From a virus (lineage: Duplodnaviria > Heunggongvirae > Uroviricota > Caudoviricetes), in IMG/VR virus record IMGVR_UViG_651053022_000004, positions 14,440 to 78,439 of that record: 64,000 nucleotides of DNA. One strand, 5' to 3'. The position numbers and the translations under genes were made by a program. Positions 15,202 through 53,482 of the stretch are shown here, one piece after another. Under the pieces are notes generated by a model, which ran no database searches, was not told where the DNA came from, and saw nothing but the letters and a program-made list of their open reading frames with translations. Numbering within the stretch: position 1 is the stretch's first letter; every line of letters begins with the position of its first letter.

Positions 15202-15630
15202 ATGACACAGACAGAATCAGCGATTCTGGCGCACGCCCGGCGATGTGCGCCAGCGGAGTCGTGTGGCTTCGTGGTGAGAACGCCGAAGGGGGAAAGATAT
15301 TTTCCCTGCGTGAATATCTCCGGTGAGCCGGAGGCGTATTTCCGGATGTCGCCGGAGGACTGGCTGCGGGCAGAGATGCAGGGTGAGATTGTGGCGCTGG
15401 TCCACAGCCACCCCGGTGGTCTGCCCTGGCTGAGTGAGGCTGACAGGCGGCTGCAGGTGCAGAGTGATTTGCCGTGGTGGCTGGTCTGCCGGGGGGCGAT
15501 TCATAAGTTCCGCTGTGTGCCGCATCTTACCGGGCGGCGCTTTGAGCACGGGGTGACGGACTGTTACACGCTGTTCCGGGATGCTTATCATCTGGCGGGG
15601 ATAAACCATAGAGCAGAATTATTTTTCTGA
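15202..15630 (+). pseudogene. K: tail tip protein K, truncated after about residue 134 by a sequence discontinuity
   Basis: MTQTESAILAHARRCAPAESCGFV... follows lambda gpK up to ...DCYTLFRDAYHLAGI (nt 15603), then reads NHRAELFF-stop into AT-rich unrelated sequence. Confidence 0.85.
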
Positions 15631-15798
15631 TGTTGTTTATTGTTTATTTAAATGCAGGGTGGTTTATATCTCGTCTTGTAGTTTATCCATGCATATCTGC
15701 TTGATAATCAGGTTTTTATTTAAGGTATGGTTTTGTGTTTTTTCTGTATTACATGTCAGGTATTTTAAAGAATCATTTTTCAGATGGTGGAAAGAACC

Positions 15799-15987
15799 AT
15801 GGCATTTAAACACTATGATGTTGTCAGGGCGGCGTCGCCGTCAGATCTTGCGGAAAAGCTGACACATAAACTGAAAGAGGGCTGGCAGCCGTTTGGTAGT
15901 CCGGTGGCCATAACCCCTTATACCCTGATGCAGGCGATTGCAGCAGAAGGTGATGTGGTGGTCAGTGGTGCAACTGAGCCGGAGTGA
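15799..15987 (+). CDS. small hypothetical protein upstream of the lysis cassette
   Basis: 62 aa from ATG 15799 (MAFKHYDVVRAASPSDLAEKL...), purine-rich stretch upstream; no family assignment. Confidence 0.4.
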   Translation: MAFKHYDVVRAASPSDLAEKLTHKLKEGWQPFGSPVAITPYTLMQAIAAEGDVVVSGATEPE

Positions 15988-16229
15988 TACTACGTCATCG
16001 TACTGGCCCGGCATTCTAGGCCATAAAGGACAGTCTGGCAGTGGGACTAAATGCACTGACGCTGACGGATATTACCAAAAATGCAACGTATGGCGTTGAG
16101 ATAGAAAGTCTGGTGCTGGAGATAAATGTACCGGCATCATCATAAAAAGTGAGCCAGTCAAATGGAAGGTATCGTTAAACTCACCGGTAGTGTCAGTGGG
16201 TCGTCTGAGATGCCTGCATGAGTTATCAG

Positions 16230-16262
16230 AGCCATCAGTACTTAACTGGTGGCTTTTTTTAT
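16230..16262 (+). terminator. intrinsic terminator upstream of the holin, tR'-like position
   Basis: Stem agccatcag / ctggtggct with one G-U pair, 7-nt loop, followed by T7. Confidence 0.5.
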
Positions 16263-16295
16263 TGTTGTCAGCTTCCGGATAACGGGAGACGGGGT

Positions 16296-16511
16296 ATGGA
16301 CCAGATGGAAAAAATCACAACAGGTGTGTCATACACCACGTCAGCGGTGGGAACGGGCTACTGGTTCCTGCAGTTGCTGGACAGGGTTTCCCCGTCTCAG
16401 TGGGCGGCAATAGGCGTGCTGGGGAGTCTGCTGTTTGGGCTGCTGACATATCTGACTAACCTGTATTTCAAAATCAGAGAGGACCGTCGTAAGGCGGCAC
16501 GGGGAGAGTAA
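16296..16511 (+). CDS. class II holin (pinholin), phage 21 S21 family
   Basis: 71 aa [71 protein letters not shown]; dual-start M1/M4 motif; close to S21 as recalled; RBS GGGAGACGGGG upstream. Confidence 0.85.
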
Positions 16512-16515
16512 TTCA

Positions 16516-16866
16516 ATGACTCAAAACTATGAACTGATTGTGAAAGGGATCCGCAATTTTGAGAATAAAGTTACGGTAACTTTAGCGTTACGGGACAAAA
16601 AACGCTTTGACGGTGAAATTTTTGACCTGGACATCTCGCTGGACCGTGTTGAAGGTGCCGCGCTGGAGTTTTATGAGGCAGCAGCCAGAAGGAGCATCAG
16701 ACAGGTCTTCCTGGATGTTGCTGCCGCGTTATGTGAAGGGGATGAGCAGTCGCCGGAAAAGCGCCCCGTAATTTTAGAGGCGCAGAATGTATGGATAACC
16801 TACAAAGGAAAGCTACCGGGAAGAATTACTGGTTCTCTGAAGACTCCTCCGGAATCACAACCTTAA
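16516..16866 (+). CDS. holin-adjacent protein, possibly YdfR/DUF1327-like, with an aberrant C-terminus read from repeat copy A
   Basis: 116 aa MTQNYELIVKGIRNFENKVTVTLALRDKKRFDGEIFDLDISLDRVEGAALEFYEAAARRS...; sits between holin and lysozyme as ydfR does in Qin; last ~38 codons are encoded by the 16748-16860 repeat. Confidence 0.55.
   Translation: MTQNYELIVKGIRNFENKVTVTLALRDKKRFDGEIFDLDISLDRVEGAALEFYEAAARRSIRQVFLDVAAALCEGDEQSPEKRPVILEAQNVWITYKGKLPGRITGSLKTPPESQP
16748..16860. repeat. copy A of a ~113-bp imperfect direct repeat (copy B at 17652-17765)
   Basis: agtcgccggaaaagcgccccgtaattttagaggcgcag...ctaccgggaa..aatta..ggttctctgaaga occurs twice, 904 bp apart, about 88% identical. Confidence 0.85.
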
Positions 16867-16895
16867 GTCACTGACCGGAACAGATAAACCTGTCC

Positions 16896-17428
16896 GTGGG
16901 GCAAAAATCAGATACGGCCTGTCGGCTGCCGTTCTGGCACTGATTGCCGTCGGTGCGCCCGCGCCTGATATTCTCGACCAGTTTCTGGATGAAAAAGAAG
17001 GTAACCACACAACGGCATACCGCGATGGGTCCGGCATCTGGACCATCTGTCGGGGGGCCACGATGGTGGATGGAAAACCCGTTTTTCCCGGTATGAAACT
17101 GTCGAAGGAAAAATGCGACCAGGTCAACGCCATTGAGCGTGATAAGGCGCTGGCATGGGTGGAGCGCAATATTAAAGTACCACTGACCGAACCACAAAAA
17201 GCGGGTATAGCGTCATTCTGTCCCTATAACATTGGCCCCGGTAAGTGTTTCCCGTCGACGTTTTATAAGCGGCTGAATGCCGGTGATCGTAAGGGCGCAT
17301 GCGAGGCGATTCGCTGGTGGATAAAAGATGGTGGGCGCGATTGCCGCATACGTTCAAATAACTGCTATGGACAGGTTATTCGTCGTGACCAGGAAAGCGC
17401 ATTAGCCTGTTGGGGGATAGAGCAGTGA
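16896..17428 (+). pseudogene. SAR endolysin (lysozyme), 5'-truncated copy without start codon
   Basis: Reads (..)KIRYGLSAAVLALIAVGAPAPDILDQFLDEKEGNHTTAYRDG... in frame but nothing precedes KIRYG; the first in-frame ATG (17063) would lack the conserved E-D-T N-terminal region; about 90% identical to the intact copy at 18108. Confidence 0.75.
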
Positions 17429-17829
17429 GCAGAGTCGCCGCGATTATTTATGCTTTGGTTATCTGCATCATCGTCTGCCTGTCGTGGGCGGTCAATCATT
17501 ACCGTGATAACGCCATCGCCTACAAAGAACAGCGTGATAAAAAAGTCAGTGAGCTGAAGCAGTCGATCGCCACCATCGCTGACATGCAGCAGCGTCAGCG
17601 TGATGTTGCTGCACTCGATGCAAAGTACTCGAGAGAATTAGCCAATGCGAAAGTCGCCGGAAAAGCGCCCCGTAATTTTAGAGGCGCAGGATGTGTTGAT
17701 AACCTACAGAGGAAAACTACCGGGAATAATTACGGGTTCTCTGAAGAGTCCGCCGAAATGGTAATTTTACCAGCATATTTTTCATCCAGTAATACAGCAA
17801 GCCGCCTGAAAGAGTCTTGTTGTTCCTGA
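17410..17829 (+). pseudogene. Rz i-spanin N-terminal fragment fused to repeat copy B
   Basis: ...[75 protein letters not shown] matches the first half of the intact Rz at 19284, then runs into the 17652-17765 repeat. Confidence 0.65.
17652..17765. repeat. copy B of the ~113-bp imperfect direct repeat
   Basis: See copy A at 16748-16860. Confidence 0.85.
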
Positions 17830-18002
17830 GACCATTTGGGATTGCATGATTCAAACTGGATTGATGCCAGCGTTGATTGCATCTGTTCCCTTGGAATTGA
17901 GAATGCCAGATATGAGAAGGCGACGGTAAGGGTATTCACGTCTTCCCGAAGCCTGGAAATGCTGTCGAGCAACTCCTGTAGAGAAATGGTGTTATTGTCC
18001 AT
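17730..18002 (-). CDS. hypothetical protein, antisense to the lysis genes
   Basis: 90 aa [29 protein letters not shown]...; strong RBS (GAGGA, 6-nt spacer) before the ATG at 18002; 3' end overlaps repeat copy B. Confidence 0.4.
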
Positions 18003-18107
18003 AAATAATCCTCATGATTGTATTGACCTGTTAGCAGCCTGAGGCAACAGGCTGGAACTGATAAACATATCCAGGGCTCAGAAACCGATAAATCCTGATA
18101 AATATCC

Positions 18108-18641
18108 ATGAACGCAAAAATCAGATACGGCCTGTCGGCTGCCGTTCTGGCGCTGATTGCCGCTGGTGCGCCTGCGCCTGACATTCTCGACCAGTTTCTG
18201 GATGAAAAGGAAGGTAACCACACCACGGCATACCGTGATGGCGCGGGTATCTGGACCATCTGCCGCGGTGCCATCCTGGTGGATGGCAAACCTGTCGTTC
18301 CGGGCATGAAGTTGTCGAAGGAAAAATGCGACCGGGTTAACGCCATTGAGCGTGATAAGGCGCTGGCATGGGTGGAGAAAAACATCAAAGTGCCATTGAC
18401 CGAACCCCAGAAAGCGGGGATCGCGTCATTCTGTCCGTACAACATTGGTCCCGGTAAGTGTTTCCCGTCGACGTTTTACAGACGAATTAATGCAGGTGAT
18501 CGCAGGGGAGCATGCGAAGCGATTCGCTGGTGGATTAAGGACGGTGGCAGAGACTGCCGTATTCGCTCAAATAACTGTTACGGTCAGGTATTCCGTCGTG
18601 ACCAGGAGAGCGCGCTGGCGTGCTGGGGAATCGACAGATAA
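18108..18641 (+). CDS. SAR endolysin (lysozyme), Qin RrrQ-like
   Basis: 177 aa MNAKIRYGLSAAVLALIAAGAPAPDILDQFLDEKEGNHTTAYRDGAGIWTICRG...; weakly hydrophobic Gly/Ala-rich N-terminal SAR segment; closely resembles E. coli Qin prophage lysozyme as recalled. Confidence 0.9.
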   Translation: MNAKIRYGLSAAVLALIAAGAPAPDILDQFLDEKEGNHTTAYRDGAGIWTICRGAILVDGKPVVPGMKLSKEKCDRVNAIERDKALAWVEKNIKVPLTEPQKAGIASFCPYNIGPGKCFPSTFYRRINAGDRRGACEAIRWWIKDGGRDCRIRSNNCYGQVFRRDQESALACWGIDR

Positions 18642-18835
18642 GCAGAATATTTTGCTGAAAAATGAGGTTGGCCAACGCGGGCGGATAACACGAAGTCCTG
18701 TGAACTGGCAAAACCTAAGTGAATAAAAGTAAAAACCCCGTTTGTTGGCAGCAAGCGGGGTTTTGTTTTTATGGCAGTAAGCTATGGGAGGCTGCCTTGA
18801 TTGATTTTAGCAAACTGATTAGGGAGTTGCGACTC

Positions 18836-18931
18836 ATGATTAGTCAATTACCAAACTGGAAATTTTTGCTGGTCTGGAGCATCCCTTTTTTATGGGTAGT
18901 ATCCCAGTTAATTGTGGCAATTAAGGGGTAG
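18836..18931 (+). CDS. small hydrophobic peptide P0 (31 aa)
   Basis: MISQLPNWKFLLVWSIPFLWVVSQLIVAIKG; RBS AGGGAG upstream; stop lies 2 nt before the next start. Confidence 0.35.
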   Translation: MISQLPNWKFLLVWSIPFLWVVSQLIVAIKG

Positions 18932-18933
18932 CT

Positions 18934-19065
18934 ATGTCAGACAAACTCATAACGCCGGCAAAGGTCCTGTGTGTGATTGTCGGTATTTCATTTTCACTAA
19001 TGCTGGTTGCTCTTTTTCTGTCCCTCGCCTGGGTGATGTTGTCTTCGTCGGGGCTGCTGGGGTGA
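18934..19065 (+). CDS. small hydrophobic peptide P1 (43 aa)
   Basis: MSDKLITPAKVLCVIVGISFSLMLVALFLSLAWVMLSSSGLLG; RBS AAGGGG 5 nt upstream; one predicted TM helix. Confidence 0.45.
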   Translation: MSDKLITPAKVLCVIVGISFSLMLVALFLSLAWVMLSSSGLLG

Positions 19066-19184
19066 CAGTGACTGATGACATCAGCAGAGCGCTGGCTTTT
19101 GCTATTAAGTGGGTGGCTGTTGGTATTGCTGTGTCTCCGATGCTGTATGGGCTGGCAAAACTGGTCATTGCGCTGAAATCGTGA
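19062..19184 (+). CDS. small hydrophobic peptide P2 (40 aa), GTG start overlapping P1 stop
   Basis: (M)[39 protein letters not shown]; GTGA start/stop overlap with P1. Confidence 0.4.
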   Translation: MTVTDDISRALAFAIKWVAVGIAVSPMLYGLAKLVIALKS

Positions 19185-19282
19185 ACTTTAAAAAGATGAG
19201 TGCTGAACTTATTCGGGCAATGGCATTTGCCATTCGTATTGTGGCCATTGCTGTTCTGGTCTGGGCAATCCGTTGGTGGTGA
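19181..19282 (+). CDS. small hydrophobic peptide P3 (33 aa), GTG start overlapping P2 stop
   Basis: (M)[32 protein letters not shown]; paralogous to P2 (ALAFAIKWVAVGIAV vs [15 protein letters not shown]); stop 1 nt before the Rz ATG. Confidence 0.4.
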
Positions 19283-19283
19283 T

Positions 19284-19778
19284 ATGAACCGTGTTCTGTG
19301 TGTGGTGATTATTGTCATGCTGGTAGCCTGTGGTGTGCTTAGTCTGGGGCTGAATCATTACCGCGATAACGCCATCACCTACAAAGCGCAGCGCGATAAA
19401 AAAGTCAGTGAGCTGAAACTGGCGAATGCCACTATTACTGACATGCAGCAGCGCCAGCGAGATGTCGCTGCGCTTGATGCCAGATACACGAAGGAATTAG
19501 CCGATGCGAGAGCTGAAAATGAAACTCTGCGCGCTGATGTTGCCGCTGGTCGTAAGCGCCTGCGGGTCAACGCCACCTGCCCCGGTACCGTGCGTGAAGC
19601 CACCGGCACCTCCAGCGTGGATAATGCAACCGGCCCCCGACTGGCAGACACCGCTGAACGGGATTATTTCATCCTCAGAGAACGGTTGATGACAATGCAG
19701 AAGCAGCTGGAAGGGGCGCAGGAATATATCCGCACTCAGTGCACTAAGCTGGCTTTTTATTATCCGGAGGATACATGA
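19284..19778 (+). CDS. i-spanin Rz
   Basis: 164 aa from ATG 19284, [45 protein letters not shown]...; N-terminal TM helix plus coiled coil, lambda Rz-like. Confidence 0.88.
19504..19689 (+). CDS. o-spanin Rz1 lipoprotein, embedded in Rz in the +1 frame
   Basis: [61 protein letters not shown]; lipobox VVSAC and proline-rich body as in lambda Rz1. Confidence 0.85.
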
Positions 19779-19990
19779 AGAAATTACGGGTAACCGTAGA
19801 ACCTTTTCAGGGAACAATTCCGTTCCGTATTTTGCAGCGTGGTCGTGTTCTTGTTGAAGGTTCGTTCAGTGGTAAATGTACGCAATTACACTCCCGGACC
19901 TTTCAGGTGAATGCCACGAATGAAGAGCTAACCGTGGAGTGTACGATGAATGCCGCTAAATGCCGCATGGTATTACAGCCAGTGTGTTGA
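19775..19990 (+). CDS. hypothetical protein, start overlapping the Rz stop
   Basis: 71 aa [31 protein letters not shown]...; ATGA overlap with the Rz stop; no family assignment. Confidence 0.4.
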
Positions 19991-20188
19991 GCGACCTTAT
20001 TATCCATGCGCGGTATTGTCGCCGTATTCCTGCATTAACAGAGACCGCAGCCCGACAGGGAGACTCCTCTGCGCGAGTGTGCGGGGATAATCAAAAACGA
20101 TACACACCGGGGTTTACCGCGTTAACGGAGCGCGGCGTTGTCCCCTCATAGTCGCCTGTCCGGTGCGATGGTGGAAGAAACCGAACGT

Positions 20189-20389
20189 TCATTTCTCGTT
20201 ATTTGTCATGCTGGCCGGGCGCAGATGCGTTGCATCTGTTGCCAGCCTTCTCCTGCAGGCTTCAATAACCCACGCTGAAAAGTTACCGGACCCTTTATGC
20301 TCAAGGGCGATGTTGATCTGTTCAATTATGTGATTGGGGAAACGGATATTGCGGGTTGTGGTTCTGCGGGTCCGGTTTTTCGATGACAT
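20189..20389 (-). CDS. small ribbon-helix-helix-like DNA-binding protein
   Basis: 66 aa from ATG 20389, MSSKNRTRRTTTRNIRFPNHIIEQINIALEHKGSGNFSAWVIEACRRRL; RBS AAGGAAA upstream; basic N-tail then beta-strand and helix pattern. Confidence 0.5.
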   Translation of the reverse strand: MSSKNRTRRTTTRNIRFPNHIIEQINIALEHKGSGNFSAWVIEACRRRLATDATHLRPASMTNNEK

Positions 20390-20430
20390 ATTTATTTCCT
20401 TTACTGATTGCCATATGACGGGGATTTTAC

Positions 20431-20796
20431 ATGGCTGAGCTTCGTACACTCCAGAGCAGAATCAAAACACTGAATACCCGACGGGTGAATATTCTGAAGG
20501 GGGAGCAGCGTCGTGTCAGTGGCAGTGCACGTGTTTCCCTCAAGCGTCATATCTGGCTGAGGGACGCCGGGCAGTGCTGTATCTGTGGTCGTGTGGTTGA
20601 CCTCTGTGACAGTGAACTCGATCACCGAATTGCACTTCAGTTCGGTGGTGGTAATGAGGAGACGAATCTTTGGACGCTCTGTGCCGAATGCCATCGACAA
20701 AAGTCTGCTCGTGAAGCGGCGAGTGGTATGCCGGACCCGACGCTGCCGGAGGTGTCCGGAGGTAGTGGCAGAGAGGACGACATCATCGGACTGTAA
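20431..20796 (+). CDS. HNH endonuclease (terminase-associated)
   Basis: 121 aa with CxxC...DHRIALQFGGGNEETNLWTLCAECHRQK HNH/zinc-finger motif, located just upstream of the terminase genes. Confidence 0.85.
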   Translation: MAELRTLQSRIKTLNTRRVNILKGEQRRVSGSARVSLKRHIWLRDAGQCCICGRVVDLCDSELDHRIALQFGGGNEETNLWTLCAECHRQKSAREAASGMPDPTLPEVSGGSGREDDIIGL

Positions 20797-20888
20797 CCCA
20801 ACCCGGGGGGGGTATCATCCGGCGTAAAAAACGATCGCTTTGGACACCGCGCCCCCTCTCACGCAGAGAAAAAATTCCCGTTTCAGGG

Positions 20889-21012
20889 CAGTTAACATGT
20901 TAACTGGCTGCCCGGGCATTTTTGCGGTTTTTATCTTTATTATTCAGTTTGTTGTGCGGAAAAAATGTTAACAGGCTTTTTCAGCAAATGTTAACCAGGC
21001 AGCAGTTAACAT
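20889..21012. repeat. cluster of gttaacat/atgttaac sites upstream of the terminase small subunit gene, including an 18-bp perfect palindrome
   Basis: cagttaacatgttaactg at 20889-20906; atgttaac at 20965 and 20988; gttaacat at 21005. Confidence 0.8.
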
Positions 21013-21086
21013 TTGCGGCATGAGACGCCGGGAAAAATGGGCTGAACCATACCCGGCTGAGTGCGTTCTGGACCCGGGAGGAGGCT

Positions 21087-21650
21087 GTGCTGACAACGCA
21101 AAAACGAAAATTTGCGCTGGCGCTCATGTCCGGGAAAAACAAAACAGCGTCAGCCATTGCCGCCGGTTATTCGGCGAAGACCGCCAGGGTTAAAGGCTCG
21201 CAGCTGGCAAAAGATCCTGAGGTGCTTGCGTTTATAGCCCGTAAACAATGCGAGACGGTGGAGGTGGATGAGGTTCCTGTTTACCGGCAGAAAAAATCAG
21301 AGCAGGAGGATAAACCCCGTCGCCGTGAGGCGGCTGCAATACCACAGCCGGACGAAAACAATCTGGAGATGCCACCGTCCGCGGTGATGTCTCCTGGTAT
21401 TGAATATATGGAGGATGGTCTTCCCGATCCGGTGAAAGCCATGGGGCGGATCCTGGTGGAAAACCTCTGCATTGATCCGAAACTGGCACTGGATGCGGCC
21501 TGGCGTCTGGCGCAGTTCACGCACCATAAAAAAGGGGATACCGGGAAAAAATCGGCAAAAGGTGATGCCGCGAAAAAAGCGGCTAACCGTTTTGCGGTGC
21601 CACCGCCCCCCCGACTGGTGGTGAATAACGATAATGAGGGCAACGGATGA
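21087..21650 (+). CDS. terminase small subunit
   Basis: 187 aa, GTG start after RBS GGGAGGAGG; N-terminal HTH-like KRKFALALMSGKNKTASAIAAGYSAKTARVKGSQL; sits immediately before the large subunit gene. Confidence 0.8.
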   Translation: MLTTQKRKFALALMSGKNKTASAIAAGYSAKTARVKGSQLAKDPEVLAFIARKQCETVEVDEVPVYRQKKSEQEDKPRRREAAAIPQPDENNLEMPPSAVMSPGIEYMEDGLPDPVKAMGRILVENLCIDPKLALDAAWRLAQFTHHKKGDTGKKSAKGDAAKKAANRFAVPPPPRLVVNNDNEGNG

Positions 21651-23308
21651 TACCTGTATGGAGCACAGCCTGCCCGGACTGGGCAGAGCGCCTGAAAAAG
21701 GGGCTGTCGATTATTCCGGATCCGATTTATCCGGACGAGGCCGCACATGCCCTGGCGATTTTTAAACAACTGCGGATTGTGGATGCACCTGGTAGCCCTA
21801 CGTTCGGGGAGTCCTGTGCACCGTGGGTGTTTGACCTGGTGGCGGCCCTGTTTGGCTCCTACGATGCGCAGACCGGTGTACGCCATATCAAGGAAGTTTT
21901 TATCCTTATCCCCAAGAAAAACTCGAAGTCCACGCTGGCCGCGGGGATCATGATGACTGCACTGTTACTGAACTGGCGGCAGGCGGCGGGTTACACGATT
22001 CTGGCCCCGACTGTGGAGGTGGCGGCCAACGCCTTCAACCCTGCCCGGGATATGGTACGACGTGACGATGATCTGGATGACCTCTGCCAGGTACAGACCC
22101 ATATCCGGACCATCACCCACCGAGTGACGGACACCACCCTGAAGGTGGTGGCAGCCGATCCGAATACGGTGTCCGGTATCAAGTCCGTGGGTACGCTGAT
22201 TGATGAGTTGTGGCTGTTTGGCAAGCAGTGCAAGGCGGAGGACATGTTACGTGAAGCCATAGGCGGCCTTGCCTCCCGCCCGGAAGGGTTTGTGGTGTAT
22301 ACGACCACCCAGTCGAATGAACCGCCCGCCGGGGTGTTCAGACAGAAACTGCAGTACGCCCGGGATGTGCGCGACGGCAAAATTCATGATCCGCACTTTC
22401 TGCCGGTGATATTTGAACACCCTCCTGAAATGGTGGAAAGCGGGACTAACCTGCTGATGGAAAACCTCGCCATGGTCAATCCGAATCTCGGCTATTCAGT
22501 GGATGAGGCCTTTCTGTACCGGGAGTACCGTAAAGCCCGGGAAGCCGGTGAAGAGACATTCCGGGGGTTCATGTCAAAACACGCCAATGTGGAAATTGGT
22601 CTTGCCCTGCGCTCTGACCGCTGGGCGGGGGCTGATTTCTGGGAAGAGCAGGGCCGTTGTATCAGCCTGGACGATATCCTGCGTCGTGCTGATGTGGTGA
22701 CGGTGGGGATTGACGGCGGAGGGCTGGATGATCTGCTGGGGATGTATGTGATTGGGCGTGACCGGGAGACCCGCGAATGGCTGGGCTGGGGCCATGCCTG
22801 GGCGCATGAAACCGCGGTGGTCCGACGGAAGAGCGAGGCGTCCCGGTTTCAGGATCTTGTTGCCTGTGGAGATATGACCATTGTCCGGCGTGTCGGGGAT
22901 GACACGGCGGAAGTGGCGGAATATGTGCGTCGCATTCATGAGGCTGAGTTACTGGACCATATCGGTATTGACCCGTCAGGGGTGGGGCAGATTCTGGATT
23001 CACTGGCGGAAGCCGGGATCCCCGACGGAATTGTGGTGGGGATAAGCCAGGGCTGGAAACTGGGCGGGGCCATTAAAACCACCGAGCGCAAACTGGCTGA
23101 AGGGGTGCTGGTGCATGGTGACCAGCCCCTGATGGCCTGGTGTGTCGGCAATGCCCGGGTGGAGCCTAAAGGTAACGCCATTCTTATCACCAAACAGGCC
23201 AGTGGACGGGGAAAAATTGACCCGCTGATGGCGCTGTTCAATGCGGTCTCCCTGATGTCCCTTAACCCGGAACCGAAAAAGAAAGAATATGCGGTTTTTT
23301 TCATATAA
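21647..23308 (+). CDS. terminase large subunit
   Basis: 553 aa with P-loop-like FILIPKKNSKST and nuclease-domain acidic motifs; overlaps the TerS stop. Confidence 0.88.
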   Translation: MIPVWSTACPDWAERLKKGLSIIPDPIYPDEAAHALAIFKQLRIVDAPGSPTFGESCAPWVFDLVAALFGSYDAQTGVRHIKEVFILIPKKNSKSTLAAGIMMTALLLNWRQAAGYTILAPTVEVAANAFNPARDMVRRDDDLDDLCQVQTHIRTITHRVTDTTLKVVAADPNTVSGIKSVGTLIDELWLFGKQCKAEDMLREAIGGLASRPEGFVVYTTTQSNEPPAGVFRQKLQYARDVRDGKIHDPHFLPVIFEHPPEMVESGTNLLMENLAMVNPNLGYSVDEAFLYREYRKAREAGEETFRGFMSKHANVEIGLALRSDRWAGADFWEEQGRCISLDDILRRADVVTVGIDGGGLDDLLGMYVIGRDRETREWLGWGHAWAHETAVVRRKSEASRFQDLVACGDMTIVRRVGDDTAEVAEYVRRIHEAELLDHIGIDPSGVGQILDSLAEAGIPDGIVVGISQGWKLGGAIKTTERKLAEGVLVHGDQPLMAWCVGNARVEPKGNAILITKQASGRGKIDPLMALFNAVSLMSLNPEPKKKEYAVFFI

Positions 23309-45480: not shown

Positions 45481-45501
45481 CCACTCGTTGTTCAGTTACA
45501 G

Positions 45502-45524
45502 ACCGCGCCGACGCGGTTTTTTTA
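45502..45524 (+). terminator. hairpin accgcg-ccga-cgcggt plus T7 after the capsid gene
   Basis: Read directly from the sequence. Confidence 0.55.
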
Positions 45525-45556
45525 TGCCCGCACAGTGTTGCGGGCAGGAGTTTCTG

Positions 45557-45874
45557 ATGGCAGCAATAGTGGAAAAACTCAGGGCGCAGTGCCGTATTGA
45601 TACAGATGATGCAACTGATGATGAGTTACTGATGCTGTATTTCCGGGCTGCCTGCCGCAAGGCAGAAAATTTTATCAACCGTAAGCTTTATGAGGAGACG
45701 GTGCCGGAAGGTGATCCTGAAGGGGTGCTTATAGCTGATGATGTTTTGCTGGCGCTCATGTTGCTGGTCGGGCACTGGTACGAAAACCGGGAAAATTCCT
45801 CAGATGTCAGCAAGGCACCAGTCCCGTTTGGTTTTTCTTCTCTGCTGGAGCCTTATCGTTTTATTCCTTTGTAG
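45557..45874 (+). CDS. head-tail connector protein (gp6-like)
   Basis: 105 aa from ATG 45557, RBS CAGGAG. Confidence 0.7.
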   Translation: MAAIVEKLRAQCRIDTDDATDDELLMLYFRAACRKAENFINRKLYEETVPEGDPEGVLIADDVLLALMLLVGHWYENRENSSDVSKAPVPFGFSSLLEPYRFIPL

Positions 45875-45882
45875 GAGGAGAC

Positions 45883-46221
45883 ATGCAGGCGGGCAGATTA
45901 CGTGATCGCGTAATTATTCTGAATGTCACCACCGCCCGCTCTCCGTCAGGGCATCCGGTGGAGACGGTGACGGAGGGAGCTACCGTATGGGCAGAAGTTA
46001 AGGGTATCAGCGGGAGGGAGATAATCTCAGGCGGAGCAGAAACCGCTCAGGCTACGGTCAGAGTCTGGATGAGATTCCGGCGCGATGTGACAGCGACTTC
46101 ACGTCTGAAAGTGCTGACCGGTGCATTTAAAGGGGCCATTCTGGGTATAGAAGGTCCACCAATACCGGATGCACGCGCTACCCGGCTTGAAATACTCTGC
46201 AGCCTGAAGGGGAATGTGTGA
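45883..46221 (+). CDS. head closure / head-tail adaptor protein
   Basis: 112 aa; paralogous to 28278..28628. Confidence 0.72.
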   Translation: MQAGRLRDRVIILNVTTARSPSGHPVETVTEGATVWAEVKGISGREIISGGAETAQATVRVWMRFRRDVTATSRLKVLTGAFKGAILGIEGPPIPDARATRLEILCSLKGNV

Positions 46222-46667
46222 TGGATTTCAGTCTTGATTTTTCCGGCCTGGCGGATATTGCACGGGATTTGGAGACGCTCAGCAGGGCAGAAAACAATAA
46301 GGTTCTGCGCGATGCCACCCGTGCCGGTGCTGAAGTTATGCGGGATGCAGTTGTTGAACGTGCGCCGGAGCGAACCGGGAAACTGAAGAAAAATGTGGTT
46401 GTTCTCACTCAGCGTTCAAAGCGTCGGGGGGAAATTATCTCGGGTGTCCACATTCGCGGACGGAACCTGCGAACCGGAAACAGTGATAACAGCATGAAAG
46501 CCAGCGATCCCCGAAATGCATTTTACTGGCGCTTTGTGGAGCTGGGAACGATAAACATGCCCGCGCATCCATTCATTCGCCCGGCTTTCGATACGACAGA
46601 GGAACTGGCAGCACGGATTGCCATACAGCGAATGAATCAGGCTATTGATGAGGTCTTAAGTAAATGA
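46218..46667 (+). CDS. HK97 gp10-family tail component
   Basis: 149 aa; paralogous to 28625..29071. Confidence 0.72.
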   Translation: MMDFSLDFSGLADIARDLETLSRAENNKVLRDATRAGAEVMRDAVVERAPERTGKLKKNVVVLTQRSKRRGEIISGVHIRGRNLRTGNSDNSMKASDPRNAFYWRFVELGTINMPAHPFIRPAFDTTEELAARIAIQRMNQAIDEVLSK

Positions 46668-47008
46668 GAGAGGCCACACTGTATTCCCTGTTGTCTCAGC
46701 TGGCCGGAGGACAGGTTTATCCTTATGTGGTCCCACTGACGGAGGGAAAGCCTGCGGTATCTCCGCCGTGGCTGGTGTTTTCTGTGGTGTCTGACACGGC
46801 ATCTGATGTGCTTGATGGGCAGGCTGAATCCAGAATTACCGTGCAGATCGATGTCTGGGCGACAGTACCTGATGACGCAGATAATATTCGTGAGCAGGCG
46901 CTTGATGCGGTAAGAAAACTGGCACCCTCCGTTATTTCTAAAACGCAGGGTTATGATCCTGACTCCCGTCTGAGCAGAGCCACGCTTGAATTTCAGGTAA
47001 TAGCCTGA
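46664..47008 (+). CDS. DUF3168-like tail completion protein
   Basis: 114 aa; paralogous to 29068..29412. Confidence 0.7.
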   Translation: MREATLYSLLSQLAGGQVYPYVVPLTEGKPAVSPPWLVFSVVSDTASDVLDGQAESRITVQIDVWATVPDDADNIREQALDAVRKLAPSVISKTQGYDPDSRLSRATLEFQVIA

Positions 47009-47039
47009 GGTCATTAATGATTTTACCCACCCGCCGCTG

Positions 47040-47061
47040 GCGGGTTTTTTTATTTTCAGGA
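47040..47061 (+). terminator. hairpin cccgcc-gct-ggcggg plus T7 upstream of the major tail gene
   Basis: Read directly from the sequence; equivalent to 29442-29463. Confidence 0.5.
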
Positions 47062-47068
47062 GACGAGT

Positions 47069-47773
47069 ATGTCCTCTAATTTTGAGCGTTCGCAACTGAC
47101 GAAAATTATGATTTCGTCTGCACCGGTAACAGCAGAAACCCTGGATTCTGCCAGCTATCTTGGCCTGAGCTGTACAATCAAAGAGGTGCAGTTTACCGCA
47201 GGACAAAAGCAGGATATTGATGTCACCACGCTGTGTTCTGTTGAGCAGGAAAATATTAACGGTCTTGGTGCCGCGTCAGAGATTTCCATGTCAGGCAACT
47301 TTTATCTGAATGCTGCCCAGAACGCGTTGCGCAGTGCCTATGACAATGACACCACGTATGGCTTTAAAGTTATTTTTCCGTCAGGCAACGGATTTACCTT
47401 TATGGCAGAGGTGCGTCAGCATACCTGGTCTGCAGGAACCAATGGTGTTGTGGCTGCAACGTTTTCCTTGCGCCTGAAAGGTAAACCTGTGCTGACGACA
47501 GAGCCGCTGAAAGTGAAGGCCGATTTAAAAAGCACGCTGCGGGTTGCTTCCGGAGCGAAACTTGAAATGGCGGTTGAGGCTGCGGGTGGTGTGCCGCCTT
47601 ATTCTTATGTCTGGAAGAAAGGTGGTTCTCCTGTTTCCGGACAGACGGCGGCAACGTTCAGTAAGGCATCGGCAGTATCCGGTGATGCGGGTGCATATAC
47701 CTGCGAGATTTCTGATTCAGCAAGCCCGGTTAACAAAGTGACCTCCACTTCCTGCACTGTAACCGTCAGTTAA
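47069..47773 (+). CDS. major tail tube protein with C-terminal Ig-like domain
   Basis: 234 aa; paralogous to 29479..30195. Confidence 0.8.
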   Translation: MSSNFERSQLTKIMISSAPVTAETLDSASYLGLSCTIKEVQFTAGQKQDIDVTTLCSVEQENINGLGAASEISMSGNFYLNAAQNALRSAYDNDTTYGFKVIFPSGNGFTFMAEVRQHTWSAGTNGVVAATFSLRLKGKPVLTTEPLKVKADLKSTLRVASGAKLEMAVEAAGGVPPYSYVWKKGGSPVSGQTAATFSKASAVSGDAGAYTCEISDSASPVNKVTSTSCTVTVS

Positions 47774-47787
47774 TGAGGATGGATGTG

Positions 47788-48159
47788 ATGACTAAAAATA
47801 TCCGTAATCTGGCACTGGCAACGATGTCGGGGTTTCGCCATAAAACCGTTGATGTGCCTGAATGGGAGGGAGCAACGGTTGTGTTACGGGAACCTTCTGC
47901 AGAAGCCTGGTTGCGCTGGCAGGAGATCGTTAAAGCAAAAGATGATGAGACACCGTTATCCGTTGCGGAGCGCGCCCGCCGAAATCTGGAGGCAGATGTT
48001 GAACTGTTCATTGATGTTCTGTGTGATACCGGACTGCAACCCGTATTTTCAGAGGATGATCGTGAACAGGTGATTGCCGTGTATGGCCCGGTGCATGCGC
48101 GGCTTCTTCGGCAGTCTCTGGAACTGATCAGTGATGCCGGCGAGGTTAAAAAAAAGTAG
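47788..48159 (+). CDS. tail assembly chaperone (G-like)
   Basis: 123 aa from ATG 47788; ends at slippery A AAA AAG. Confidence 0.75.
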   Translation: MTKNIRNLALATMSGFRHKTVDVPEWEGATVVLREPSAEAWLRWQEIVKAKDDETPLSVAERARRNLEADVELFIDVLCDTGLQPVFSEDDREQVIAVYGPVHARLLRQSLELISDAGEVKKK

Positions 48160-48170
48160 CGCTTCCGGGG

Positions 48171-48461
48171 ATGCGTTTTCTGATGATGCTGGCGCTCAGG
48201 ATGGGGCGCACATTGTCAGAGTTACGCCGGGAAATGTCCGCATCAGAAATCATGATGTGGGCAGAATTTGACAGGTTCAGCCCGCTGGGGGACGAACGGG
48301 CTGATATCCGGGCTGCCCAGATTGTTTCAGCTGTTTACGGTGCGCAGGGGGTCAAAGTGCCACTGAATGATGCGCTTCTTCAGTGGGAGAAGGAGCAGAC
48401 AGAAGGCGTATCAGATCCATTTGCCGGACTGGAAAACGCGCTTTTAATAGTGTCTCAGTGA
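48171..48461 (+). CDS. tail assembly protein T-like segment, reached by -1 frameshift
   Basis: Slippery A AAA AAG at 48150-48156; the -1 frame continues into MRFLMMLALRMGRTLSELRR... Confidence 0.7.
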   Translation: MRFLMMLALRMGRTLSELRREMSASEIMMWAEFDRFSPLGDERADIRAAQIVSAVYGAQGVKVPLNDALLQWEKEQTEGVSDPFAGLENALLIVSQ

Positions 48462-48501
48462 GTCAACATAACCGCTTCGGCGGTTTTTTTTCGTCCGGAG
48501 A

Positions 48502-51500
48502 ATGAGTGTGGCGACATTACGTGAACTGATTATTAAAATCTCGGCAAATTCCCGGTCATTCCAGTCAGAGATCTCCCGGGCTTCGCGTATGGGGCAGGAT
48601 TACTACCGTACCATGCAGAACGGAGGCCGGCAGTCCGCTGCTGCATCCCGTGAAATGCGGCGTGCACTGGCAGAAGTGACGGATCAGATAAATACAGCTA
48701 AATCTTCGGCACTGAATATGGCGGGGGCATTTGCCGGGGCTTTTGCTACCGGTCATCTTATTTCTTTCGCCGATGAGTGGAATTCAGTAAATGCCCGTCT
48801 GAAGCAGGCCTCACAGTCCAGTGATGATTTTCAGGCATCACAGCGTGAATTAATGGCGATCAGCCAGAGAACGGGGACGGCGTTTTCTGATAACGCCAGC
48901 CTTTTTGCCCGTTCTGCAGCTTCCATGCGGGAGTATGGTTACAGTTCTGAGGAGGTACTGAAAGTCACCGAGGCGATCTCCACGGGCCTGAAATTATCCG
49001 GTGCCAGTACAGCAGAAGCCAGTTCGGTGATCACGCAGTTCAGTCAGGCACTGGCGCAGGGAGTGCTGCGCGGTGAAGAGTTTAACTCGGTGAATGAGAA
49101 CGGCGATCGTGTTATTCGTGCGCTGGCTGCGGGAGTGGGGGTTGCCCGTAAGGATCTGAAGGCCATGGCGGATAACGGAAAGTTGACCGCCGATAAGGTT
49201 GTTCCTGCACTGATTAGTCAGCTTGGGGCATTACGTGATGAATATGCGGCAATGCCTGATACGGTTTCATCCTCTGCAACCAAAGTTGAAAACGCCTTTA
49301 TGGCCTGGGTTGGTGGTGCGAACGAGGCAAGCGGAGTGACGAAGACGCTCTCCGGTGTGCTGAATGGTATTGCAGGCAATATTGACACTGTGGCAACCGC
49401 TGCCGGTGCTCTGGTTGCCGTCGGGGTAGCCCGATATTTTGGCAATATGGCGTCTTCTGCTGGATCTGCAACTGCCGGATTAATTACTGCAGCCAGAAAC
49501 GAAGTGGCTCTTGCGGAAGCGCAGCTCCGGGGGACACAGATAGCAACAGCCAGGGCGCGTGCGGCGGTTTATCGTGCGCAACAGGCGGTTGTTGCTGCTC
49601 GCGGTACCGAAAGGCAGGCAGCCGCAGAAGCGAAACTGGCTGCTGCCCAGGCATCACTTACCCGTAATATTGCGGCCAGAACAGCAGCACAGACAACGCT
49701 GAATACTGTCACGTCAGTGGGAAGTCGTCTGTTAAGTGGAGCACTGGGACTGGTTGGTGGGGTGCCGGGGCTTGTCATGCTGGGGGCCGCGGCCTGGTAC
49801 ACGATGTATCAGAATCAGGAGCAGGCCAGAGAATCTGCACGCCAGTATGCCGCAAAAATCGACGAAATTCGCCAGAAAACGTCGGCAATGTCGCTTCCTG
49901 AAGCGTCAGATAATGAGGAAAAGACGCGGCAGGCACTTGATGAGCAAAACAGGTTAATTGACGAGCAGAAAAGTAAGATTAAATCCTTACAGGAAAAAAT
50001 TGCTGGCTATCAGTATGTGCTGGCAAACCCGGGCTGGACAACCGATAACGGTTTTATGATTAACCACATGACGTCGGTAAAAACAGTCACAGAAGGGCTT
50101 GCAGAAGCAACAAATCAACTGGCAGTTGAACAGTCCCGTCTCACACAAATGCAGGGCAAAGCGCAATCCATTCAGGATGTGCTTGCCGGGCTGGAGGAGC
50201 GGCGGGTTGCGTTGATCCGTCAACAGGCGGCGGAACAAAACAAAGCGTATCAGTCCCTGTTGATCATGAATGGGCAGCATACCGAGTTTAATCGCCTTCT
50301 TGGGCTTGGTAATGAATTACTTCAGCAGCGACAGGGGCTGGTGAATGTACCGTTACGGCTACCACAGGCAACCCTGGATGATAAACAGCAGACCGCACTG
50401 AATAACAGCAAGCGCGAACTGGCTCTGTCCCGCCTTAAGGGGGAAGCGCGTGAGCGTGCCCGACTGGGCTATGCTGCGGATGATCTCGGCTTTGTGGGAG
50501 AGGCGTATCAGACAGCCAGACAGAATTATATCAATAACTCACTGGATGCCTGGCGAAATAACCAGGCAAATAAACCCAAAGCGCATAAAAAGACCGAAGC
50601 GGAAAAAACAGAAGATATTTATAAACGGCTGATTAAACAGCAAAAAGAACAGATAGCACTGGCAGGGCAGAATACTGAACTGGCTAAGATGAAATATCAG
50701 GTCAGTCAGGGCGAATTATCAACCCTGTCAGAAGCGCAGAAAAAAACGCTTTTGCAGAATGCAGCACTCATCGACCAGAAAAAGATTCGTGAGCAGCTTG
50801 CTGCGTATGAAAGCAGCCTGGCGGACAGTAATGCCAGTACCCGGGCGTCTAACGACGCGCAGTTACTGGGATATGGTGAAGGCTCACGGATGCGTGAACG
50901 ACTCCAGGAAATGTGGAGTATCCGGCATGAGTTTGAGCAGAAAAATAACGAGCTGCTGAGACAGTATCAGGCCGGAGAAATTGAAGAAGCCCTGTGGAAA
51001 CAGGAGAAAGAACTGAATAAAAAATATCTGGAAGAGCGTCTCAGCGATCAGCAGGATTATTATGCAAAGGCCGATGCTTTACGTAATAACTGGAATGCAG
51101 GACTCCAGGAGGGGCTGACCAACTGGGCAGACAGTGCCACCGATTATGCTTCGCAGGCGGCAGATGCTGTCGTTTCCACTATGGACGGGCTGGTATCAAA
51201 TATTTCCGATGCGCTGGCCGGAAATGTTGTGGACTGGAGAAACTGGGGGAGTTCAATTCTCCAGGAAGTTTCAAAAATTCTGATGAATGCGGCCATTGTT
51301 AACGGACTGAAGTCACTCTCCGGTGCCGGAGGGTGGCTTGGTACGGTCGGCGGATGGATTTCGGGGGCGGTGGCAAACGCAAAAGGTGGTGTTTACACAT
51401 CGGCAAATCTGAGTGCTTACAGTAACACTATTGTGGATACACCGACGTATTTTGCTTTTGCGAAAGGTGCCGGGCTGATGGGCGAGGCCGGGCCTGAAGC

Positions 51501-51735
51501 TATCATGCCACTGACACGGGCAGCGGACGGCTCTCTTGGGGTCAGAGCCATTGGCAATGTGAATAGTGGCGGGGGGGTTGTTTATTCTCCCGTGTATCAC
51601 ATCAGCATTCAGAATCAAGGGAGCAATGGCGAGATAGATGCGCGCTCAGCCAGGGGACTGGTGGATCTGATCGACAGCAGGGTTGTGTCAATTATGCAGT
51701 CATCGCGTCGGGATGGAGGATTGTACAGTGCCTGA
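48502..51735 (+). CDS. tail tape measure protein
   Basis: 1077 aa; paralogous to 30937..34179. Confidence 0.9.
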   Translation: MSVATLRELIIKISANSRSFQSEISRASRMGQDYYRTMQNGGRQSAAASREMRRALAEVTDQINTAKSSALNMAGAFAGAFATGHLISFADEWNSVNARLKQASQSSDDFQASQRELMAISQRTGTAFSDNASLFARSAASMREYGYSSEEVLKVTEAISTGLKLSGASTAEASSVITQFSQALAQGVLRGEEFNSVNENGDRVIRALAAGVGVARKDLKAMADNGKLTADKVVPALISQLGALRDEYAAMPDTVSSSATKVENAFMAWVGGANEASGVTKTLSGVLNGIAGNIDTVATAAGALVAVGVARYFGNMASSAGSATAGLITAARNEVALAEAQLRGTQIATARARAAVYRAQQAVVAARGTERQAAAEAKLAAAQASLTRNIAARTAAQTTLNTVTSVGSRLLSGALGLVGGVPGLVMLGAAAWYTMYQNQEQARESARQYAAKIDEIRQKTSAMSLPEASDNEEKTRQALDEQNRLIDEQKSKIKSLQEKIAGYQYVLANPGWTTDNGFMINHMTSVKTVTEGLAEATNQLAVEQSRLTQMQGKAQSIQDVLAGLEERRVALIRQQAAEQNKAYQSLLIMNGQHTEFNRLLGLGNELLQQRQGLVNVPLRLPQATLDDKQQTALNNSKRELALSRLKGEARERARLGYAADDLGFVGEAYQTARQNYINNSLDAWRNNQANKPKAHKKTEAEKTEDIYKRLIKQQKEQIALAGQNTELAKMKYQVSQGELSTLSEAQKKTLLQNAALIDQKKIREQLAAYESSLADSNASTRASNDAQLLGYGEGSRMRERLQEMWSIRHEFEQKNNELLRQYQAGEIEEALWKQEKELNKKYLEERLSDQQDYYAKADALRNNWNAGLQEGLTNWADSATDYASQAADAVVSTMDGLVSNISDALAGNVVDWRNWGSSILQEVSKILMNAAIVNGLKSLSGAGGWLGTVGGWISGAVANAKGGVYTSANLSAYSNTIVDTPTYFAFAKGAGLMGEAGPEAIMPLTRAADGSLGVRAIGNVNSGGGVVYSPVYHISIQNQGSNGEIDARSARGLVDLIDSRVVSIMQSSRRDGGLYSA

Positions 51736-52069
51736 GCCTGAAGTTTTTAACTGGATCCCCCGTGAGGGGATGGAGACGACACGAAAGCCATCAGTTATTA
51801 CGGTAAAGTTTGGTGACGGATATGAACAGAGACGGGCTGGTGGTCTGAATGCGGATCTGAAAACGTTTAAACCGGTATTTCGTGTCACAGATGAATATTC
51901 CCGTGCCGCGCTGGACAGTTTTTTATCCCGTCATGCCGGGATTCGTGCTTTTTTGTGGCGTCCGCCAAAACACAACAGGACTGTCCGGGTTGTCTGCAGG
52001 GAGTGGAGCATTTCGGATAATGCCATGTATACCGATTTTAACTGTACCTTTGAAGAGGTCACTCACTGA
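51728..52069 (+). CDS. minor tail protein M-like
   Basis: 113 aa from GTG 51728 overlapping the TMP stop, by analogy with 34172. Confidence 0.85.
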   Translation: MPEPEVFNWIPREGMETTRKPSVITVKFGDGYEQRRAGGLNADLKTFKPVFRVTDEYSRAALDSFLSRHAGIRAFLWRPPKHNRTVRVVCREWSISDNAMYTDFNCTFEEVTH

Positions 52070-52758
52070 TGCAGGATATACAGCAGGAAACACTCAATGA
52101 GTGCACTAAAACGGAGCAATCCGCGCTGATCGTGCTCTGGGAAATTGATCTGACAGAGGTCGGCGGAGATCGTTATTTCTTCTGTAATGAGCAGAACGAA
52201 AAAGGTGAACCGGTCACCTGGCAGGGGCGGCAGTATCAGGCATACCCCATTCAGGGGACGGGATTTGAACTGAACGGTAAGGGCAGTGCTGCCCGTCCGA
52301 CACTGACGGTCTCTAACCTGCACGGCATGGTCACCGGGATGGCGGAAGACCTGCAGAGTCTGGTCGGCGGAACGGTGGTCAGGCGTAAGGTTTACGCCCG
52401 TTTTCTGGATGCGGTGAACTTCGTCAACGGAAACAGTGACGCCGACCCGGAGCAGGAGGTGATCAGCCGCTGGCGCATCGAGCAGTGCAGCGAACTGAGT
52501 GCGGTCAGTGCTTCTTTTGTACTGTCCACGCCGACGGAAACGGATGGTGCGGTTTTTCCGGGGCGCATCATGCTGGCCAACACCTGTACCTGGACCTATC
52601 GCGGTGATGAGTGCGGTTATAGCGGTCCGGCTGTCGCGGATGAATAGACGTCCGATATCACGAAAGATAAATGCAGCAAATGCCTGAGTGGCTGTAAGTT
52701 TCGCAATAACGTCGGCAACTTTGGCGGCTACCTTTCCATCAACAAACTTTCGCAGTAA
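52069..52758 (+). pseudogene. minor tail protein L-like, frameshifted near codon 191
   Basis: Lambda-L-like to ...GYSGPAVADE then stop; compared with 15061-15090 an 11-bp stretch (tgaccagccaa) is missing; the remaining L C-terminus (TSDITKDKCSKCLSGCKFRNNVGNFGG) is in another frame. Confidence 0.8.
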
Positions 52759-52763
52759 ATCCC

Positions 52764-53482
52764 ATGACAGAGACAGAATCAGCGATTCTGGCGCACGCCC
52801 GGCGATGTGCGCCAGCGGAGTCGTGCGGCTTCGTGGTGAGAACGCCGGAGGGGGAAAGATATTTCCCCTGCGTGAATATCTCCGGTGAGCCGGAAGATTA
52901 TTTCCGGATGTCGCCGGAGGACTGGCTGCAGGCCAAAATGCAGGGTGAGATTGTGGCGCTGGTCCACAGTCACCCCGGTGGTCTGCCCTGGCTGAGTGAG
53001 GCTGACAGGCGGCTGCAGGTGCAGAGCGATTTGCCGTGGTGGCTGGTCTGCCGGGGTGAGATTCATAAATTCCGCTGTGTGCCGCATCTTACCGGGCGGT
53101 GCTTTGAGCACGGGGTGACGGACTGTTACACGCTGTTCTTGAGATGCCGGATTTTCATCGCGGGGATGACTGGTGGCGTCACGGTCAGAATCTCTATCTG
53201 GATAATCTGGAGGCCACAGGGCTGTATCAGGTGCCGTTGTCATCAGCACAACCGGGCGATGTGCTGCTGTGCTGCTTTGGTTCATCGGTGCCGAATCATG
53301 CCGCCATTTACTGCGGCGACGGCGAGCTGCTGCACCATATTCCTGAACAACTGAGCAAACGAGAGAGGTATACCGACAAATGGCAGCGACGCACACACTC
53401 CCTCTGGCGTCACCGGGCATGGCACGCATCTGCCTTTACGGGGATTTGCAACGATTTGGCCACCGCATCGACCTTCGTGTGA
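52764..53482 (+). pseudogene. tail tip protein K-like, frameshifted by a small deletion at the position where the first K copy is truncated
   Basis: N-part reads to ...DCYTLF (53137), then cttgag joins directly to atgccggattttcatcg; the C-part (53144..53482, MPDFHRGDDWW...TGICNDLATASTFV) is lambda-K-like in another frame. Confidence 0.8.

Follow-up and report, generated by a model that had tools for sequence, protein, structure and literature searches.

The DNA stretch analysed in this study (64,000 nt of the Caudoviricetes record IMGVR_UViG_651053022_000004; hereafter the window) begins with a lambda-like gene series that runs from Nu1 into a K gene (K1). Lysis and virion genes fill about 37.5 kb between the break in K1 and a deletion in a further K gene, K3 (Table 1). 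Pieces were assigned by exact-match painting and BLAST painting against real prophage loci. The window is a patchwork to which three prophages (P1, P2 and P3) supply exact pieces. In finished genomes of Escherichia coli ST131 these occupy three different chromosomal sites: P1 adjoins sitABCD (strain 4/1-1, 1.27 Mb), P2 is found at 1.06 Mb in AR_451, and P3 at 2.15 Mb in strain 4/0. The blocks are 99.7-100% identical to intact, separately located ST131 prophages and are nested in the order P1[P3[P2]P3]P1; as both the first piece and the last derive from P1, the window starts and ends in this prophage. The ISEc52 copy of AR_451 is absent here, and its target site is intact.

Table 1. Pieces of the window and features discussed in the text, with the matching reference prophage loci.
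Feature	Coordinates	Strand	Content	Reference locus and identity
P1 contig	1..15601	+	lambda-like Nu1-A-W-B-C-D-E...H-M-L, then K to codon 134	L004 14001-29602, 99.96%, single piece
K1', truncated K frame, 142 aa	15202..15630	+	JAB domain only (translation, Pfam)	
P3-type SNPs in K1 (n=5)	15465..15538	+	P1-type counterparts in K3 at 53027-53100	
P3/P2 late-region contig	15602..16900	+	nanS-p remnant, class II holin, YdfR	L006rc 9897-11206, 99.1%
P3 contig	16901..17653	+	lysozyme and N-terminal part of Rz	L006rc 11230-11982, 100%
P2 block, lysis end	17652..39068	+	3' end of ydfR, lysozyme, Rz, HNH	L007 18446-41276, 99.99-100%, without ISEc52 (whole block)
P2 block, virion genes	17652..39068	+	terS, terL, capsid, broken portal, tail genes	
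P2 block, 3' part	17652..39068	+	intact K2 (35222-35965), I, J cut at codon 730	
P3 block, 5' part	39069..54228	+	HNH, P27-type terS, terL, portal, protease, capsid	L006rc 12590-27783, exact save two gaps and a swapped patch (whole block)
P3 block, 3' part	39069..54228	+	tail genes, tape measure, M, L3, K3, I, J start	
L3 break	52609..52647	+	9 nt (TGACCAGCC) gone after 52646, giving a TAG stop at 52645-52647	
K3 break	53101..53139	+	25 nt gone after 53138, frame shifted	
Patchwork	54229..62161	+	about 20 exact fragments of 110-1330 nt each, P1/P2/P3 alternating	
Right end of P1 tail-fibre region	62162..64000	+		L004 34850-36688, 99.9%

A self dot-plot of the window made three paralogous blocks visible and, as the earlier note had stated, no integrase, repressor or replication gene was found between the two K breaks (by transfer of annotation from the matching RefSeq prophages). 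Other contents that the note had ascribed to this region have to be corrected. Instead of a single lysis cassette there are two partial ones, of P3 type (15602-17653) and of P2 type (17652-20000). Neither of the two virion modules, described as full, is complete: that of P2 has a portal gene interrupted at a collapsed 90-nt repeat (27148-27376) and a J gene truncated at 39068, and in P3 both L and K are broken. Moreover, the region after K, which had been read as a K C-terminus followed by a plain I-J-lom-stf series, is a patchwork that includes a second copy of I. Its fragments are sorted by their place along I-J-lom-stf, with start coordinates that climb steadily through J-lom-stf. It contains five two-copy duplications (55033-55425, 56344-56572, 56820-57079, 57081-57572 and 58814-59032; TRF, 2.0 copies), which represent both prophage alleles placed in series (P1/P3 in four, P2/P3 in the fifth), and the best complete genome covers the patchwork in 19 pieces.

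The two K breaks define the apparent insertion. K1 starts with the ATG at 15202 and is identical to a real prophage K gene up to 15601/15602, which confirms the loss of K-likeness previously noticed after codon 134; beyond this point the frame continues into unrelated, AT-rich DNA and reaches a stop codon at 15628-15630. Strains 4/1-1 and B36 carry an intact P1 K gene, and the exact K1' protein has no match in public protein collections. In K3 (from 52764 onwards) CGGGATGCTTATCATCTGGCGGGGA is missing between 53138 and 53139. The small deletion reported earlier for K3 is thus present, but the motifs DCYTLF and MPDFHR, said to be joined by it, lie in different frames, as the deletion is frame-shifting. 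The 38 nt preceding this break are identical to 15539-15576 in K1 and to 35559-35596 in K2. When 15202-15601 and 53139-53482 are joined in silico, they encode an intact protein of 247 aa that has both a JAB and an NlpC/P60 domain. K1, K2 and K3 are 80-90% identical to one another across about 1.1 kb, and the patch of SNPs swapped between K1 and K3 was entered via a 56-nt run common to both genes. The last 25 nt of the P1 contig (15577-15601) constitute the unique part of a graph node common to the three K genes; this 25-k-mer node accounts for the apparent agreement between the break in K1 and the deletion in K3.

The other breakpoints have a similar structure. Position 15602 coincides exactly with the start of a run shared by P2 and P3, i.e. 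with a node boundary. Just before 16901, 35 nt are absent, and the first 38 nt of the piece starting there recur at 18114-18151. The P2 block begins with 38 nt that are also found at 16748-16785 and ends with 38 nt also found at 57702-57739, the point where P2 J resumes. The P3 block, from which two short shared nodes were left out, ends 38 nt past the last P3-specific base, and these 38 nt equal 54990-55027. The 38 nt before the L3 break are those of 15039-15076 in L1.

Three signatures of a de Bruijn graph with k=39 were looked for: a spike of repeats of length k-1, depletion of longer repeats, and gaps equal in size to shared nodes. Maximal exact repeats of 38 nt form 14 pairs in the window versus a single pair at each of the lengths 37, 39 and 40 nt (Poisson P about 3e-10), and the real-prophage control contains 3 maximal repeats of this length. 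All of the 38-nt repeats lie at breakpoints (16901, 17652, 27148-27376, 39068, 52646, 53138, 54228, 55230, 56220, 56457, 58922 and 59032). No 38-nt partner was found inside the window for six further breakpoints (15602, 56649, 57326, 59181, 59976 and 61306), whose graph neighbours presumably lie outside it. Contigs appear to carry the overlap at one end only, or to have been joined inside scaffolds, a pattern explained only qualitatively. Exact repeats of at least 39 nt number 12 in the window versus 72 in the concatenated real P1, P2 and P3 prophages, which is the collapse of repeats expected at k=39. The 39-mers common to the real prophages predict shared nodes of 9, 25 and 35 k-mers, and these fall exactly where the P3 copy has gaps of 9, 25 and 35 nt. 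The 9-k-mer node is common to P1 and P3 (the L3 gap) and the 25-k-mer node to all three prophages (the K3 gap); the bases missing from the P3 copy occur once, in the P1 or the P2 copy.

Two kinds of join can be distinguished. Switches of prophage type that keep the register are confined to exact runs of 41-140 nt that the prophages share, none of them shorter than k. Out-of-register joins are blunt (0-2 nt shared), and those at 15602, 17653, 39068 and 54228 connect non-homologous positions; at 15602, the left junction of the insertion, K is joined, with 0-1 nt in common, to an intergenic, non-homologous position in a different prophage.

The junctions were not found elsewhere. Among 5,426 complete genomes of E. 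coli, none contains any of 13 junction 60-mers. A 28-mer across the left junction had no match in viral, genome or metagenome contig collections, nor had one across the K3 deletion in the viral contig collection. The products of eight junction ORFs are lacking among about 15 billion proteins, which include those of two control ORFs taken from inside the pieces, and four junction ORFs had no record in the gene-position index.

The 37.5-kb "insertion" in K is an assembly artefact and not a biological structure. We consider it highly probable (about 0.94) that the window consists of contigs from a short-read de Bruijn-graph assembly (k=39) of an ST131-type genome, which were ordered on a reference and concatenated without spacers. 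The analysis shows from which prophages the pieces come, that 38-nt overlaps exist and repeats are collapsed, that the gaps have the predicted node sizes, and that the junctions are absent from the collections searched; the k value, the assembler and the ordering tool are deduced from the sequence alone. The source genome would have contained three or more lambdoid prophages, located at three different sites of the chromosome, with many exact runs longer than k common to their L, K, I, J, lom, stf and lysis genes. Because of these runs, the assembler would have broken the prophages wherever paths merge or split and kept each shared node once; at times it would have left a shared run by the wrong path, which would explain the five-SNP swap between K1 and K3. 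In the ordering step, P3 and P2 contigs would then have been set beside similar P1 contigs. As the P1 contig ends with the 25-k-mer K node, and the P3 scaffold, devoid of this node, resumes at the very next base, the illusion arises of 37.5 kb inserted precisely into K. The assembly chimera that the earlier note had named as one of two options is thus strongly supported, and its remark on packaging is moot, because no such prophage exists.

The other option, a composite prophage formed by homologous recombination between the K genes of lambdoid prophages, has a negligible probability. Lambdoid prophages are known to recombine, the three K genes share 80-90% identity over about 1.1 kb, and the reciprocal SNP patches in K1 and K3 could resemble a crossover or gene conversion. 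However, the left junction connects codon 134 of K with a non-homologous intergenic site (about 1 nt shared), the junctions at 17653 and 39068 are likewise non-homologous, the joins destroy the genes in which they fall (K1, J2, L3 and K3 are truncated), and the junctions occur in no related genome. Recombination of this type is also unable to yield fourteen overlaps of exactly 38 nt and, judging from the non-homologous sequences of the junctions, it is already refuted. A real complex rearrangement of three prophages in an unusual isolate, by nested illegitimate insertions or by template switching during replication, seems extremely improbable. The blunt or microhomologous joins and the nested block order do resemble products of template switching in outline, but about 20 switches would be required, some of them just 110 nt apart, all following the homologous coordinate, duplicating both alleles and ending exactly 38 nt past the last paralogue-specific base. 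Moreover, exact repeats of at least 39 nt would have to have vanished genome-wide and the tail genes of all three prophages to have been inactivated, for which there is no parallel in the 5,426 genomes. It is very unlikely that some of the in-register switches (e.g. gene conversion between K1 and K3), or a triply defective, rearranged prophage cluster, represent real biology.

A different computational origin, such as the linearisation of a unitig or pangenome graph, mis-bridging in a hybrid assembly or a deliberate concatenation, also appears very improbable, and it would likewise leave the feature non-biological. The k=39 overlaps and the collapse of repeats prove only that the pieces come from a k-mer graph, and a sorted graph could also give an order by homologous coordinate. 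Against this, the large resolved contigs (15.6 kb, about 11.7 kb and 15.2 kb), like the chimeric paths that keep the register, resemble repeat resolution by an assembler rather than raw unitigs, and the reference-ordered route has a documented precedent in ST131 (PMC4134206). Several other explanations were rejected. A single contig, comprising K1 and the K C-terminus, split by an insertion is countered by the missing 25 nt, which form a node common to three K genes, and by the behaviour of 39069-54228, which is that of a single scaffold whose outer ends carry overlaps. In a noisy long-read assembly scattered indels are expected, and the pieces have none, being 99.99-100% identical to the references. 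The flanks of the insertion (GGGGAT/AAACC and CTGTTC/TTGAG) have neither the target-site duplication nor the inverted repeats of an IS or transposon. As for nested site-specific integration, no integrase was found in the matching annotated segments, and the ends of the 37.5-kb segment share no repeats.

The precedent for assembly from contigs ordered on a reference is the "complete genome" of the ST131 strain NA114, for which Velvet contigs of 54-bp reads were ordered with Mauve on SE15 and concatenated, and whose prophage differences were concluded to be misassemblies (Forde et al. 2014, PLoS One 9:e104400, PMC4134206). The window resembles NA114 in its ST131-type prophage content, in the adjoining of prophage fragments from different loci, in the lack of N spacers, in breakpoints located at repeats, and in the non-biological nature of what sets it apart from finished ST131 genomes. 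Its k value of 39 is compatible with the 54-bp reads of NA114; this is a likeness only, and NA114 as the source of the window is a plausible lead.

Genuine mosaics of lambdoid prophages in E. coli (e.g. the prophage pool of O157) demonstrate that hybrids are biologically possible. Like the window, they involve several prophages per genome that have stretches of L, K, I, J, lom and stf in common. In real mosaics, however, the joins are in register within homology and the genes are intact, whereas those of the window are out of register, blunt and gene-destroying, with a fixed 38-nt overlap. The prophage of E. coli Z1323CEC0003 (NZ_CP148493.1), in which deletions have placed lysis remnants beside FI, Z, L and K, is superficially similar to the window, where K adjoins lysis genes. 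We rejected it as a match for this architecture: it is a single, genuinely decayed prophage with other junctions, an integrase and an att context, and it carries neither duplicated modules nor the 38-nt signature.

The feature described here is therefore without biological significance and uninformative on the biology of prophages; its practical value is that of a warning. Similar records in databases carry finished-genome labels. Such records can give rise to false novel prophage architectures, false tandem duplications and false pseudogenes (here K, L, J and portal). Tests that need no reads, i.e. the spike of repeats of length k-1, the depletion of longer repeats and gaps of the size of nodes, could flag such records automatically.

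Three head-tail modules, all in the same orientation, were recognized in the window by ORF listing and self-BLAST (see table), and the interruption of K described in the earlier note was found where it had been placed, some details aside. In K1 (ATG at 15202) the match to a real K ends at 15601/15602 (codon 134; junction A) and AT-rich sequence follows. In K3 the halves are not joined in frame: 25 nt (CGGGATGCTTATCATCTGGCGGGGA) are missing between 53138 and 53139, which causes a frameshift. Pfam searches detected JAB and NlpC/P60 domains in the intact K2 (35222-35965), as well as in K1 (to 15601) joined to the sequence from 53139 onward, and the JAB domain only in K1' and K3'. Self-BLAST also revealed a second, partial lysis cassette and, beyond 53.4 kb, a chain of near-tandem duplications (87-95% identity), neither of which should occur in a real phage region.

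When the window was traced by BLAST in 5,426 complete E. coli genomes and then painted with exact matches, it proved to consist entirely of 99.7-100% copies of three lambdoid prophages (P1, P2 and P3), which occupy three different chromosomal sites in finished ST131 genomes. P1 adjoins sitABCD (strain 4/1-1, locus L004), and its K gene is intact in strains 4/1-1 and B36; P2 is represented in strain AR_451 (L007) and P3 in strain 4/0 (L006). The pieces are nested, and the order of the small fragments near the end of the window follows their I-J-lom-stf coordinates. The J gene of P2 is cut at 39068 and resumes at 57702. In each of five exact 2.0-copy duplications (periods of 195, 115, 129, 246 and 110 nt), the two prophage alleles of a single segment stand one after the other. 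Even the best complete genome accounts for 53000-64000 only as 19 separate pieces.

Coordinates of features in the window
Feature	Position	Remark
L-K copy 1	14479-15602	self-BLAST; 80-90% identity among three copies
L-K copy 2	34494-35621	self-BLAST; 80-90% identity among three copies
L-K copy 3	52049-53167	self-BLAST; 80-90% identity among three copies
P1	1-15601	
P3	15602-17653	late genes
P2	17652-39068	ydfR to J codon 730
P3	39069-54228	HNH to start of J
P1/P2/P3 alternating	54229-62161	about 20 exact fragments, 110-1330 nt
P1	62162-64000	
38-mers ending at a breakpoint	39068, 52646, 53138, 54228, 55230, 56220, 56457, 58922, 59032	
38-mers starting at a breakpoint	16901, 17652	
38-mers inside portal repeat	27148-27376	
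HNH-small terminase sites	39446-39895, 20431-20796	

Several neighbouring features were noted in passing. An HNH endonuclease gene immediately precedes the gene for the small terminase subunit in the HK97-like modules of P2 and P3, the usual position in this phage type. ISEc52, which interrupts the P2 lysis region in AR_451 and in numerous ST131 genomes, is missing from the window at 18029-18032, where the two sides meet cleanly and the 4-nt overlap resembles a target site that has not been duplicated; its absence seems to reflect true polymorphism between strains and not an artefact. The exact 121-aa lysozyme fragment (17063-17425) carries the label "lysozyme, partial" in 13 public contigs, and partial lysozymes of draft-assembly origin abound in its 90% cluster; this repeat is evidently a frequent breakpoint of short-read assemblies. 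A genuinely decayed lambda-like prophage of E. coli Z1323CEC0003 (NZ_CP148493.1, 20070-22436), with a holin gene and fragments of lysozyme, FI and head-tail joining genes directly before L and K, is a real case of a deletion bringing lysis genes to tail genes. The 42- and 189-nt repeats of the tail-fibre gene (61580-62051; 72-83% matches) look like natural repeats of coding sequence, unlike the two-copy duplications of J (93-97% matches).

The earlier note left two readings, inter-prophage recombination or an assembly chimera. The out-of-register joins are blunt (0-2 nt in common) and link non-homologous positions: K codon 134 with the iraM/nanS-p intergenic region, Rz with ydfR, and J with sequence upstream of HNH. 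Integrase genes, att repeats, inverted repeats and target duplications are all lacking. The complete E. coli genomes contained none of the 13 junction 60-mers, the junction A 28-mer was not found in viral, genome or metagenome collections, and that of the K3 deletion was not found in viral_contigs, the sole collection scanned for it. Eight junction or chimeric ORF products were not found among approximately 15 billion proteins; both control ORFs located inside pieces were. Homologous recombination through K did not survive its defining test, and neither did nested site-specific integration, transposition or a complex template-switching event.

Maximal exact direct repeats in the window peak sharply at 38 nt, with 14 pairs of exactly this length as compared with a single pair at each of 37, 39 and 40 nt (Poisson P ~3e-10), and every 38-mer is located at a breakpoint. 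Concatenated real P1+P2+P3 has only 3 such repeats and 72 exact repeats of at least 39 nt, versus 12 in the window. Overlaps of constant length k-1 at the ends of pieces, combined with the collapse of all repeats of at least k, are the decisive signature and match the appearance of de Bruijn-graph contigs built at k=39. The P2 portal gene, a single 2,586-nt CDS in AR_451, is split at 27047-27491 into two ORFs (25521-27197 and 27049-27945). Compared with AR_451, ~161 nt are missing from a region of ~90-nt tandem repeats, and the gap is bordered by overlaps of 38 nt (27148/27310 and 27286/27376); this pattern resembles tandem-repeat collapse, a further assembly artefact.

Counting the 39-mers common to the real prophages predicted shared nodes of 9 k-mers (L genes of P1 and P3), 25 k-mers (all three K genes) and 35 k-mers (lysozyme start of P2 and P3). 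The P3 copy in the window lacks exactly 9 nt at 52646 (creating a TAG in L3), 25 nt at 53138 and 35 nt at 16900, each of which is found once elsewhere (15077-15085, 15577-15601 and 18080-18114, respectively). The P1 contig thus terminates with the 25-k-mer node, since a branch of the graph follows, and the P3 scaffold skips this node and restarts at the following base, so that K1 (to 15601) and the sequence from 53139 onward read as a perfect K. In-register switches of prophage type occur only within common exact runs (41-140 nt). Scored against real ST131 genomes (strains 4/0, 4/1-1 and B36), five SNPs are swapped, K1 being P3-type at 15465-15538 and K3 P1-type at 53027-53100 (reciprocal patches, 15465-15538 and 53027-53163). 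A 56-nt run common to K1 and K3 gives entry to the swap, which is explained by one such in-register switch; its most likely cause is a wrong turn in the assembly graph, with a slight probability left to real gene conversion between the two genes.

We consider the feature an artefact of assembly or concatenation (probability approximately 0.94), a related computational artefact of another kind being very improbable. The observation itself is confirmed, but the 37.5 kb "insertion" is not real. A precedent is the ST131 "complete genome" of NA114, assembled with Velvet from 54-bp Illumina reads, whose contigs were ordered with Mauve on strain SE15 and then concatenated (Forde et al. 2014, PMC4134206). 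The only use of the window is as a clean example for recognizing such records from sequence alone.
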